In this document: positions 49,477 to 63,965 of the stretch, piece by piece
Layout of the letters: each line of letters opens with the position of its first letter
Numbering within the stretch: the stretch's first letter is position 1
Source: Candidatus Latescibacterota bacterium
Lineage (GTDB): Bacteria; Latescibacterota; UBA2968; SICM01
Assembly (NCBI GenBank): GCA_965217865.1
Contig: CBDCJO010000002.1
Location: forward strand, 2,816,001 to 2,880,000
DNA: 64,000 nucleotides
Direction: 5' to 3'
Made by a program: the position numbers and the translations under genes
The notes under the pieces: generated by a model
The model's input: only the letters and a program-made list of their open reading frames with translations
Told to the model about the DNA's origin: nothing
Database searches by the model: none

Positions 49477-50369
49477 TCTTCTGAATCCCATCGATTCCGT
49501 ATACCAGGATCATGGATGAAAGAACAATACCACCCGTTAGACTCGGAGTCATCGGATGCGGAGCGATCGCCCAGATTCAACATCTGCCGAACCTCGCCTC
49601 CCTTCGGGAGGAGTTTGAAGTGGTCACGGTCTGCGACCGTTCACCTGCTCTGGCCGAATATGTCGCCAACACCTTTCACGTTCCGAATTTTACCACCGAC
49701 TACAACGACCTTTTGGCATCCGATCTCGATGCCCTCCTCCTCTGCCACACCGACCCAAAGACCACGGTTGCCGTTGGCGCCTTCGAAGCGGGGAAGCACG
49801 TCTTTATGGAAAAACCGATGTGCTACTCCATCCAGGATGCGGATGCCATTATCGCCGCCGCTCGAAAATCCGGGAAGGTCGGCCTGGTCGGATATGTGAA
49901 AGTCTACGATCCCGCGTTCGAACTCGCAAAACGGGAAGCCGACGAAATGGACGATATCCGTTTCGTCCAGATTAACCACCTGCATCCCAACAACAAGCTC
50001 CATCTTTCCCAATATCGGATCAAACGGTTCGACGACCTCCCCCCCAGGGAATCAGTCGAGGGAAAGGGAGAAAAGAGAAAATCTCTCCAGGCCATCGGGG
50101 ACGTGCCCAGCCACGTGGAGCAGGCTTTTTTTACCGTTTCAGGCAGCATGATCCACGACCTCTACGGCCTGCGCATCCTGCTCGGGGAACCCAAGGCCGT
50201 GATCAGCACTGAGATTTGGAATGACGGCCGGGCGATCAACACCGTTCTAGACCCTATACAAGCGTGAATTTTTCTTGGTTTTAGTAGAAAAAAGTTGAAA
50301 TGCCCCAGTTTTCAGGCCTATAGTTGTAGTGTGAAAGACAAAAAGAGGCCATCAAAAGGGGCATTTCAG

Positions 50370-52112
50370 ATGAGAGAATACAGGAAGATTCTTCGGAACA
50401 GGGAAGCACGAATTGTCCGTCGTTTGCGTCGGAAGCAGTGGTGCAGTCAGGTCAAGCCTATGATGTCTGGGGGAAACATCCACTACGAGATAAGTGGGAA
50501 GGCCGAGGCGATCACGTGTGGGGGGATCGGCGCGTTTCACCACCTGGTCCGCAGGGTTGGGCTGGTGAAAGAGATTGACCGTCATCTTCATCTTTTGAAA
50601 GTGCATTTGCCCTGTCACGAATCAGACCACGTTCTGAACATCGCCTACAATGCGCTGGTTGGTGGTCAACGCCTTGAAGACATTGAGCTGCGCCGGCAGG
50701 ATGCCACGTTCCTGAACGCTTTGGGCGCTCAGCGTCTCCCGGATCCGACCACAGCAGGCGACTTTACACGTCGTTTCCGGCCATCGGATATCGAGACGTT
50801 GATGGATTGCATCAACCGGGTGCGCACCCGGATCTGGAAAAAGCGCGCCAGGGGCGAACTCAAAGAAGCCCTCATCGACATCGACGGCACCCTGGCCACC
50901 ACCCTCGGAGAACGCAAGCAGGGCATGGCCCTGTCATACAACGGTATCTGGGGATACCATCCTCTCGTGGTCTCTCTGGCGAACACCAGGGAGGTGTTGT
51001 TTCGGTGATTATATACTTGATAAAGTCATGATAGTGATGAAGGCTCTGTCTACTCAAACAATCTGTTGGCAGTCCCCATGCCGACAAATATAGAAACAGG
51101 ACATCAAAAATCAGGTAAAGAAATCGCTCGAATCGGACGATCTCCGGCCAAGGGACGGGGCATTCTGCGAGACTTTCGCAAAAAACTCAACATTTTTGGA
51201 TAAAGCAAATAGCCTTTGTCAAGTATATAATTCCCGTTGTTTCTTGTGAATCGACCCGGCCATGTGCCCAGCCACGACGGTGCCGTAAAGTGGATCGATC
51301 GCGCCATCGCGCTGGTCGCCCCTTTCGCCAAACGCATCTGCCTGCGCGGAGACACCGGCTTCTCACTCACCCGGCACTTCGATCGTTGGTCGGAAAAGGT
51401 CGACTTCGTCTTCGGCATGGATGCTTACCGGGGATTGGTCAAGATCGCCAAATCCCTGTCACAGAGCGATTGGGAGCCCTTTGAACGACAACCCAAATAC
51501 CAGGTCAAGACCTCCCAGAGACAGAAACGCGAGAACGTGAAAGCCCGGATCATCCGGGAGCGCGGCTTCAAAAACATCCGACTTGCCAGTGAACGTGTTG
51601 CCGGGGTTTCGTATCGTCCTGCTCGATGCAGGAAGACCTGTCGACTCGTGATCCTCGAAAAGAACCTGAGCGTCGAACGCGGCGAAAACGCCCTGTTCGA
51701 TGACAAGCGCTGTTTCTTCTACATTACCACCCGAAAAGATCTTACGGCCGCGGAAATCGTGAGGCTGGCCAATCGACGGTGCGATCAGGAAAACGTGATT
51801 GAACAACTCAAGAACGGGGTCAACGCCATGCGGATGCCCGTCGACAACCTGATGAGCAACTGGGCTTACATGGTCATGACCGCCCTGGCGTGGAACCTCA
51901 AAGCCTGGTTCGCGTTGATGATCCGAAAGCGTGAGCGTCGCGATCAACTTCTGAGAATGGAGTTTCGCGCCTTCCTCCAGAATCTGATCTGGATCCCTTG
52001 CCAGATCGTGACCCGGGGAAGACAGATCATCTATCGTGTCTTGGGCTACAACCGGTGGATGACTGACTTCTTCCCGGCCTGGAACAGAATCAGATGGCTC
52101 AAACCGGCCTGA
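50370..52112 (+). pseudogene. IS1380 transposase split by a nested MITE
   Basis: PDPTTAGDF, IDIDGT, GYHPL | RGDTGF, R.DQENVIEQLK. Confidence 0.88.
51004..51235. mobile_element. 232-bp non-autonomous element (IS1595 family, ISNwi1-like ends) with 8-bp target duplication
   Basis: GTTGTTTC at 50996-51003 and 51236-51243; IRs ggtgattatatacttgataaag / gggaattatatacttgacaaag. Confidence 0.85.
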
Positions 52113-61651: not shown

Positions 61652-62683
61652 ATGAAATCGATCCCAAACAGAATCGCGATCCTCCTCCTCTCTTTCTCCG
61701 TGCTCTACCCTTGGAACGCGATCGCCGACCCTTTGGAAATCTCCAAAACCGAAGCCGACCGCGCCCGGCTTGAATCCGTTCGGGATTCCCTGTTGACACA
61801 ACGGGCATTTCTGGTCGCTCGGGCGGACAGCCTCTCCGTCCGCATCGACAGCCTCAAACGGCGATAAGAAAAAACGGCCGCGTCTGCCGAGCTCCGGAAA
61901 GGACTTCGACGCTCAATCGACTTGGCCGGCAAAATTGAATCCACCGACCTCCGGATTGAGCAAGTTCTGAAACAATTGAGAGATGTCCGGGAAAGCCTCC
62001 GCACATCCTATAGTCATCTTATCGAAGAACTCACACAACGCCTGGAACGAACCCCGAATGACACCCTGATTCGCCAGTTGGGAGCATATCAAAGAGCCAG
62101 GAAGGCGATCGAACGGGACCCTGTTGTGCACGATATTGGGGTTGAATCGGAAATCTTAATTCGTCGGGACGATGGCCCTAGAGAGATCCGCAGGAAAGCG
62201 GAATTGATCGAGGATAGAGCCGCCCGGCTGGCCACCCAGGCCTCAGGCATGGATGATCGTTTGGAAGAGTTGGAAACCGAGCAGCGGCTTCGCACACGAA
62301 TGAGAGATTTCGCGCAGGAGATAGGGCTTTTCGATGAGTACCTCCCCGAGGGACGAGCGCTATCCGCAGCGGAACAAGAGACTGGAGTCACACCATCTTC
62401 TCCCACCGAAGGAGCCGGTCGGGATCAACCCCCGACTTTTGAAGTCGAAAGGTCAGAGGGGGCCACCGGGGGGTTGATCGGTGGGTTGTCATCGGTTGGA
62501 AAAGAAGTCACCCGCCAAGAGAGAACCCTGTCACCGGAGGAATTCGCTTCTGACGACCTCGCGTTGGAAATCCAGCGGCTCCAGGCGCTGCGGAAGGACC
62601 TCCAGGAGCGGGAGCAGCTGCTCCTGGACCGCGCCAAAGCCTTTCAGGAACAACTCCGGCAATTGCTTGAGGAGAAAGATTGA
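61652..62683 (+). pseudogene. Secreted coiled-coil protein with in-frame TAA (61865-61867)
   Basis: 61652..61867 and 61922..62683 are in the same frame; signal peptide. Confidence 0.65.
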
Positions 62684-62973
62684 GGGCCCCTGGCCAGAGC
62701 TACTGGACGATCCTTCTATTCGGATTGATCGGATATCCCCATTCCCTGCAAGGCTGTGGACCTTCGTGCTGTGGTCGGATTGGAATACGATGACAACCCG
62801 TTTGAAAGCTCCTCCAAAAAATAAGAGTCCGGGCTGGTCAACAGGTTCTTCGTGGCAACATCCGGGCATCTCCTTAAACGTCCTGGGGGAGGTCTTCATC
62901 TCGGGTATCAGGGGGGTGTAAAGCGCATATGGCGGGAGGACCCACAAACACAGGGGACCTTCGGGGACGTAGT
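62680..62973 (+). pseudogene. 5' fragment of a probable outer-membrane beta-barrel protein
   Basis: Signal-like start, then 'AVVGLEYDDNPF' and alternating beta-strand pattern across frameshifts; cut at the IS110 remnant. Confidence 0.4.
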
Positions 62974-63323
62974 CATGGCCACCACCATCCGATCCGGCCC
63001 GCAATCTTTGATGCGTCGCTCCAGATGCTGCCAGAGGGTATGGTCATATCCCGCTCGCGTCACGGGGAATGAGAAGGCCCCGCCTTGCTGAAGTCCGGAG
63101 GGATCGAGCACCGACCCGCTGTGTTTTTCCTTGCCCGGATCGATCCCGAGGACGAAATTCTGGGAGATGGCCTGTCGTTTAAGGTGGAAGATTTTCGACT
63201 TCATCGTATACCTCCAGCGTTGAGGGTTGAGTTTGCTTGCGCTTGCCGAATCTTAAGACACCTTGCCTTGCAAGGGAAGATTCAGCCCCTCAACGCTGTT
63301 TTTTCCTCCTTTACTCAATATAG
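62974..63323 (-). mobile_element. IS110-family remnant: DEDD recombinase N-terminus plus structured 5' non-coding end
   Basis: 'VLGIDPGKEKH...MVVAM' (63204 to ~62974), GGAGG RBS; 12-bp inverted repeat 63215-63226 / 63287-63298. Confidence 0.75.
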
Positions 63324-63362
63324 AAATCGTTAGTGGCCATGCTCGAAAATTGAGGGTTATAA

Positions 63363-63842
63363 ATGACTGATGGCACGATTGCGGTAAGGCTGGCCGAAAG
63401 AGGAGACGTGACTTCCTTACTCGATGTCCTGCCTCAAATCAGTAGTCGACGCGATAGCCTCTCCGCAACAACTCTTGGAGTCGAGGAGTCAACGCGGATA
63501 TTCGACCAGATGTGTTCTCACGGTAACGTCCACATCATCGTTGCACAGGAACGCCTCACGGAAACTATCGTAGGTGCACTTACGATAGTGATCGTCCCAA
63601 ATCTCACGTATGGTGGACGTCCTTGGTCCGTGATCGAGAATGTGGTTGTAAGGAGGGAGTGGAGAGGCAAGGGAATCGGCAAGCAGTTAATGGACTTCGC
63701 GGTAGACCTTGCGAAGGACAGGCACTGCTACAAGACGCAACTGCTGAGCGGAGTCAATGACAACCAAGTAGGCTTCTACAGAAGTACGGGCTTCGATGAC
63801 GCAAACAGTCGGGGATTCAAGAGGTATTTTGTTGACCGGTGA
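63363..63842 (+). CDS. GNAT-family acetyltransferase (gene cassette)
   Basis: 'IENVVV...RGKGIGKQL', CYK..L, FY...GF. Confidence 0.9.
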   Translation: MTDGTIAVRLAERGDVTSLLDVLPQISSRRDSLSATTLGVEESTRIFDQMCSHGNVHIIVAQERLTETIVGALTIVIVPNLTYGGRPWSVIENVVVRREWRGKGIGKQLMDFAVDLAKDRHCYKTQLLSGVNDNQVGFYRSTGFDDANSRGFKRYFVDR

Positions 63843-63870: not shown

Positions 63871-63965
63871 CACTAACACCGTGCTCACGCTGCGGCGGCT
63901 TCGCAGCCTTGACCCTCCGGGCAACCTGGCTTGTGCCAGGTTCGTGAACACAGAAGCCGTTATGT
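63871..63965 (+). mobile_element. attC integron cassette recombination site
   Basis: R'' CACTAAC; L boxes gtgctcacg / cgtgaacac; R' GTTATGT; gccactaac is the exact complement of gttagtggc at 63329-63337 upstream of the gene. Confidence 0.8.

Follow-up and report, generated by a model that had tools for sequence, protein, structure and literature searches.

The 64,000-nucleotide stretch of DNA analysed here (the window) carries a remnant which is very probably the left end, now truncated, of an IS110-family element of 1.9 kb that is present in several copies, sits at the base adjoining the R' box of attC sites and is predicted to be steered by a two-loop bridge RNA encoded downstream of the gene for its recombinase. 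The bridge RNA, the circle and the transposition discussed below are predicted from sequence. Insertion into attC under RNA guidance has been described before, and the copy in the window is dead; the main interest of the family lies in its apparent split target guide.

The remnant (63328-62975, minus strand) corresponds to the first 354 nt of an element of about 1915 nt and is 100% identical to the starts of the full copies present in the genome; the rest of the recombinase gene, the 3' guide RNA and the right end are missing. Its first base, 63328 (minus), is a single G common to donor and target (1-nt core), at which the 11 left ends described below also start. It opens the left end (63317-63328, minus), formed by GATTTC and a −10-like TATATT (63322-63317) of putative promoter activity. 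Further inwards, a 5' leader hairpin adjoins the ribosome-binding site (63215-63298, minus; outer stem 63287-63298 / 63215-63226), and the N-terminus of an IS110 DEDD recombinase begins at 63204. The first 77 codons of this 443-aa protein (62975-63204, minus) are 100% identical to the full copies and match PF01548 (E 0.0065 for the fragment), and the reading breaks off at 62975. The IS110-family remnant recognized by the earlier note is therefore real. Outside the element, the R' core GTTAGTG of the invaded attC (63329-63335, plus), which is both the start of the GNAT cassette and the left target half, reads CACTAAC in element orientation and is mirrored by CACTAAC at 63871. The cassette gene encodes a GNAT acetyltransferase (63363-63842, plus; PF00583, E 8e-16) and is the first of three cassette-like genes, the other two lying beyond the window. 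It is closed by an uninterrupted attC-like site, CACTAAC ... GTTATGT (63871-63965, plus), the folding of which is modest by itself (z −1.9, 10 of 200 shuffles equal or better), and the same cassette start stands behind uninterrupted attC sites at C2:4315664 and C2:235206.

At the other side of the remnant, a frameshifted host gene (61922-62974, plus; no Pfam match, C-terminus TonB-like by eye only) ends at the break, and the contig of a related strain carries this gene on past 62970, without the element. The rest of the invaded attC was lost along with the 3' part of the element, so that only the R' box is visible at the window copy; the end of the host gene is missing as well. Movement of this copy by its own products is impossible. 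An 8-bp inverted repeat (ATGGCCAC / GTGGCCAT, at 62975-62982 and 63333-63340) brackets the remnant exactly at the break, and may be due to chance. Elsewhere in the window, a split transposase-like gene pair (50295-52112) is unrelated to the IS110 remnant, and a scan for direct repeats gave nothing relevant. On its far side, the three-cassette cluster is bounded by another IS110-family fragment, different from the remnant and fused to a FlaG-like stretch (C2:2882141-2882884; L004:6141-6884, minus).

Seven two-ended copies of the element were found in the genome, each of 1902-1915 nt and 99-100% identical. Their intact gene encodes 443 aa with PF01548 and PF02371, and scores 154 bits against NF033542 (cut-off 140). 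A search with the left end gave 12 matches, 11 of which run on as the element; all 11 start with GATTTC and ten of them do so directly after TAAC, two of these ten being near-duplicate loci. The end therefore lies at 63328, flush against the core, and not around 63323 with some 6 bp left before GTTAGTG, as had been proposed from the window alone. The 11 right ends all finish in CATGTA or TATGTA, with GT as the next two bases. One copy splits a transporter-like gene. Rejoined with one G, its flanks form an open frame of 200 codons, which is broken if no G or two Gs are used; donor and target thus have a single G in common. Insertion is site-specific with a short, 1-nt core and without a longer target duplication, as in the IS110 family in its broad sense.

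On paper, TTGACT at the right end and TATATT at the left end would form a promoter of 17-bp spacing on a circle; the same spacing in 43 of 43 relatives was set by the search pattern and thus adds no evidence. Circle joints were not found in four contig sets, but such sets drop rare forms, so that this is not evidence of absence. One contig from an RNA run covers part of the 3' region, though it may be DNA. The element is present in 1 of 60 genomes of host relatives, and viral contigs gave no relative. One copy, C2:3759594-3761495, is devoid of the element's initial 12 nt, and its two flanks come from unrelated places; the right one mirrors the element's own end, which suggests a rearrangement or a donor-like half match.

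The boxes of an attC site are named R'', L'', L' and R', and the integrase cuts between G and TT. The attC calls made here come from our own scans, not from IntegronFinder: a profile built from 25 hand-picked sites gave 69 matches, in small clusters. These attC-like sites consist of R''/R' and L''/L' arms around a variable hairpin, stand after a promoterless gene, and differ from class 1 sites in their spacers. No gene in the genome passed the cut-off of TIGR02249 for an integron integrase; the sole candidate is a frameshifted, IntI-like tyrosine recombinase gene with a Phage_int_SAM_4 domain (L133:1212-2391, about C2:1657170-1658350, minus), the best TIGR02249 match though below the cut-off, with cassettes after it in the same orientation.

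Read in element orientation, the flanks of the element correspond to the attC bottom strand, the element being antisense to the cassettes. Eight of the 11 right ends fall within attC-like hairpins, namely those of 5/7 two-ended copies and 3/4 of the orphan ones, and it is on this ground that the attC-inserting nature attributed to the element by the earlier note holds. Of the other three right ends, one is unclear, and two, both of two-ended copies, are outside attC, one of them within the transporter-like gene. These two insertions keep TAAC followed by G at the point of entry, which indicates that the attC hairpin is not obligatory.

As for the stretch 'agaaatc', which had been read as an attC-tail flank, it belongs to the element, given the position of the left ends. 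The resemblance is nonetheless real: 6 of the 53 empty attC-like sites start with GATTTC after TAAC, exactly as the left end does (C2 positions 1417142, 2469450, 2880813, 4179151, 4232135 and 4315592). Among these six is the uninterrupted site before the recurrence of the window's GNAT cassette at C2:4315664 (98.6% identity), whose tail also reads GAAATC, and this explains the likeness to an attC tail. Mimicry, old scars or spacer composition may account for these six sites. An immunity of GATTTC-type attC sites was considered and is unsupported; one loose contig end (a single contig) suggests that such sites can be invaded.

Beyond this genome, 117 loci were gathered: 35 from genomes, the best 80 of 239 from metagenomes, one from G033 and the element's own copy. 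Named records among them include Nitrospirota, Ignavibacteria, Bacteroidota and Calditrichota MAGs, and usable sequence was available downstream in 101 and upstream in 109. These relatives are not mutually independent and contribute one insertion site each. In this set, the left flank ends in TAAC in 59 of 71 relatives, of 38-89% amino acid identity. A strict attC test was passed by 9 of 30 relatives, with 1.3 expected, and a relaxed arm test, defined after the strict one, gave 20 of 41 with perfect attC-type arms (8/8) following the right end, against 0.4 expected.

Some loci present features of their own. At L113:3259-3333 (minus), the 3' end of a group II intron lies in the attC just behind the element, two attC parasites thus occupying one site. 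The most distant relative, L047 (34% aa), has weak RNA-model matches both upstream (70-254) and downstream (1843-2042) of the gene, with E about 0.02. In addition, a subclade (24 of 69 elements; e.g., L024:139-369 and L113:1317-1519) carries in its 5' region a second conserved, structured RNA of about 170 nt, in which GTCCTGACGCC and GGCGCT are invariant, 10 of 22 pairs are compensatory among 16 aligned sequences, and pseudoknots are possible; it has no Rfam match and is absent from the window's element.

The RNA predicted to guide the family is held by the 3' region of about 460 nt. In single-sequence searches this region matches 62 of the 101 downstream regions, and the 5' region matches 4 of the 109 upstream regions, self included; an iterated profile of the two-loop RNA covers 88 of 92 distinct downstream regions of the 117-locus set. 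The predicted fold comprises a target arm (outer stem, internal loop and inner stem) and a donor arm (a stem around a large loop). Across an alignment that took in 42 of 69 non-redundant segments, 19 of the 28 pairs are compensatory, and 93% of the cells are paired, as compared with 78% in shuffled and 39-53% in slid controls. The covariance model of this RNA gave 10 matches in the genome, every one of them an element copy, and none within the window, while Rfam returned no match to the 3' RNA or to the leaders in 8 loci.

The loops carry words that follow the DNA. In 52 of 52 cases, the 3' pentamer of the donor loop (left-donor guide) is identical to the five terminal bases of the right end, with seven different words involved (shuffle mean 19.9). 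For the right-donor guide, which has one bulged base, the variable base of the 5' segment complements base 4 of the left end in 60 of 66 cases (shuffle mean 30), the neighbouring base doing so in 33 of 66. On the target side, the 3' side of the loop reads TAAC in 79 of 88, the left-target tetramer is identical to the left flank in 60 of 69 cases, and five of eight non-TAAC guides match their own non-TAAC flank. Altogether, these correspondences point to a two-loop RNA with guides that covary with donor and target, as in bridge RNA systems. The near-invariant RNA word TTCG was also considered as a guide for a CGA motif 13-15 nt into the flank, and discarded: TTCG is paired in a covarying stem, and the motif is present in 50 of 53 empty sites too.

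The other half of the target is where the family appears to depart from known systems. Among 45 elements, the 14 loop windows taken on the 5' side of the target loop gave no exact pentamer match for a right-target guide adjoining the core, at offsets 0-2. One target-loop window, however, matches at offsets 4-8 in 18 of 45 (null 4.9; 1, 4, 5, 2 and 6 elements at the successive offsets), and the word it matches, first spotted by eye, is the L' box of attC, 3-7 nt away. Guide and box change together, as in the pairs TTAGC/GCTAA, TATGC/GCATA, TGAGC/GCTCA and AAACC/GGTTT. The offset ranges over 3-7 nt across lineages; between elements of 85% identity or more it varies by just one. That the 5'-side hexamer could be explained by intramolecular pairing was rejected, as the hexamer varies with the flanks while CTAAC stays fixed.

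We regard it as an even question whether a widespread long-IS110 lineage came to attC independently of the IS1111-attC elements and with a split guide, one half of which would read the R' box and the other the L' box across an unread spacer of 3-7 nt, possibly on a folded attC in which the spacer would be the unpaired central bubble. The folded attC is a plausible substrate. If the split reading is true, this would be a natural bridge recombinase tolerating gapped or structured targets. In the literature covered, with most subscription papers and ISfinder outside that coverage, no paper was found on a long-IS110 attC lineage or on a gapped guide, and the accessible part of PMC5034289 holds no reference to attC targeting.

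A simpler account keeps the downstream bridge RNA and supposes that target recognition relies on just the CTAAC half and the G, perhaps with the help of the attC hairpin shape or of protein contacts, the L' match being a by-product of shared ancestry or habitat. We consider this a possible explanation, though on balance not the probable one. It would agree with the poor L' fit in the window's own element (3/6 at the reference copy), where allowing G-U wobble gives a fit of at least 5/6 at 4 of 11 occupied vs 5 of 53 empty sites (Fisher p 0.04), with the TAAC and G kept at the two non-attC insertions, and with the half-match recombination reported for IS621 in the available part of 10.64898/2026.08.31.748434. 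Yet TAACG occurs 4642 times on contig C2, as against about 69 attC-like sites, and 8 of 11 right ends are found in the latter. Moreover, the L' match persists when one element is kept per distinct guide (13/28, with 2.8 expected) or per 60%-identity cluster (mean 8.5/14, null 2.6), whereas the same-strand control yields 6/48 vs 27. A different objection concerns the window itself, namely that the remnant would be an assembly artefact of the repeat, since the genome has many frameshifts and 9.3% contamination and the break falls within repeated sequence. This seems improbable to us: a short-read contig matches 62400-63004 without a difference, albeit reaching only 30 letters past the break, one below the 31-letter rule, and from a run that may be the source sample; the family-level conclusions are, besides, independent of the window copy.

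It could also be held, as the earlier note did, that the bridge RNA is the 5' hairpin itself, as in IS621 and most IS110-group elements. The roughly 120-nt upstream region does fold into nested stems that abut the ribosome-binding site, as described there: the hairpin (−44.5 kcal/mol, z −4.4, equalled by none of 200 shuffles) adjoins the GGAGG before the ATG. An upstream position is usual for the guide RNA of IS110-group elements, with listed exceptions, according to the part of PMC11187229 at hand, and the outer stem beside the ribosome-binding site is kept in the six closest elements. Against this, none of the eight target or donor words tested occurs in the hairpin, the 5' regions of 69 elements split into 26 similarity clusters, with folds of z ≤ −2 in 23 of the 69, the interior is variable and unalignable, and 1 of 11 pairs is compensatory. 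The loop-target covariation sought at the 5' end is all in the 3' RNA. Lacking guide words and conservation, the hairpin is rejected as a guide, an identity we hold to be very unlikely; the earlier failure to match loops to target is explained by the guide RNA sitting in the 3' non-coding region, which is lost here. The 5' hairpin is likely a leader that would damp translation, by analogy with ISPpu9, in which a structured 5' leader inhibits transposase translation (PMC12288879, in its accessible part).

Taking up again the element guided by a downstream bridge RNA with a split target reading, the following course can be proposed, its first steps by analogy with IS621 and ISEc11. The element would form a circle, whose joined ends would make the TTGACT-17-TATATT promoter, and the transcript starting at this junction would yield both the recombinase and the RNA. 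The guides of the donor loop would recognise the final five bases of the right end and the left end. In the target loop, CTAAC would base-pair with the R' box and a second 5-6-mer with the L' box, leaving out the 3-7-nt spacer. Insertion separates R' from the remainder of the attC by 1.9 kb, likely disabling the site. The family is an independent lineage aimed at the end of attC opposite to that entered by the IS1111-attC element ISPa21 and close to where the integrase cuts; insertions there would lock or break up cassette arrays. Furthermore, the apparent gapped reading of the target departs from the adjacent-guide rule of solved bridge recombinases, and is relevant to the way in which IS110 elements locate folded targets and to the off-target rules of bridge editing.

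The element is a member of the IS110 family, outside the IS1111 branch. Its recombinase has the DEDD RuvC and C-terminal SG domains; D22, D122/D125 and S334 align with IS621, and DEDD and SG residues also align with ISCro4. The best folds for its structure model are IS621 and ISCro4 (PDB 8wt6 and 9t56), with a TM of 0.77 on target. The earlier note's question of its place between IS110 and IS1111 was addressed by a midpoint-rooted tree of 28 proteins, with long branches and IS621 left out, which includes 16 of 18 chosen clade members (two had no clean protein). The clade forms a single branch (99/100) and lies on the same side of the tree as ISBth13 and a pair of long IS110 proteins. A split with 99/98 support separates this side from ISPa21, which groups with IS4321, ISEc11 and ISPa11.

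This placement bears on the reading of the element as an ordinary member of the IS1111-attC group (ISKpn4, ISPst6, ISPa21, ISPa25). The two share, according to the accessible parts of PMC11187229 and PMC3001079, the attC target, the antisense orientation to the cassettes, the downstream RNA and the order of the guides, the top-strand guide preceding the bottom-strand one in IS1111 seekRNAs (PMC11187229, same extent). However, the element stands in an unrelated branch, with 443 aa vs 330-350 aa and a BLASTP E of 0.17 to ISPa21 vs 1.5e-33 to ISBth13. It is also without the long (7-17 bp) sub-terminal repeats of that group, its longest perfect end-to-end inverted repeat being of 4-6 nt in 38 of 43 elements, of 7 in four and of 9 in one. 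The RNA model R1 has no match to ISPa21, ISBth13, Streptomyces or Brucella loci. The point of entry differs too: the element enters the R' end (TAAC before G, bottom strand), while ISPa21 enters the R'' end, lying in pME-1a 6 nt inside R'' with 13-bp sub-terminal repeats, in agreement with the available part of PMC3001079. We hold membership of that group to be very unlikely.

With IS621 and ISCro4, as described in the accessible part of PMC11208160, the element shares the DEDD RuvC and SG fold, separate target and donor loops, the absence of long sub-terminal repeats and a predicted junction promoter. It is distinguished from them by its length (443 aa vs about 330 aa), by an identity to IS621 of about 20% by structure, by an RNA that would lie downstream with the right guide 5' of the left guide in both loops, by a 1-nt G core instead of CT, and by a right-target match away from the core. 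It resembles the long IS110 subgroup (395-455 aa), with ISBth13 as its nearest named match, in protein length, in the long variable region and in the side of the tree; some of these long elements have a downstream non-coding region, as section 6 of PMC11187229 indicates in the part available, a comparison made by description, and identity to ISBth13 is only 25%. Finally, the structured 5' leader recalls that of ISPpu9, also compared by description and not by sequence; unlike the element, ISPpu9 targets REP, has no junction promoter and has antisense RNAs, in the accessible part of PMC12288879.
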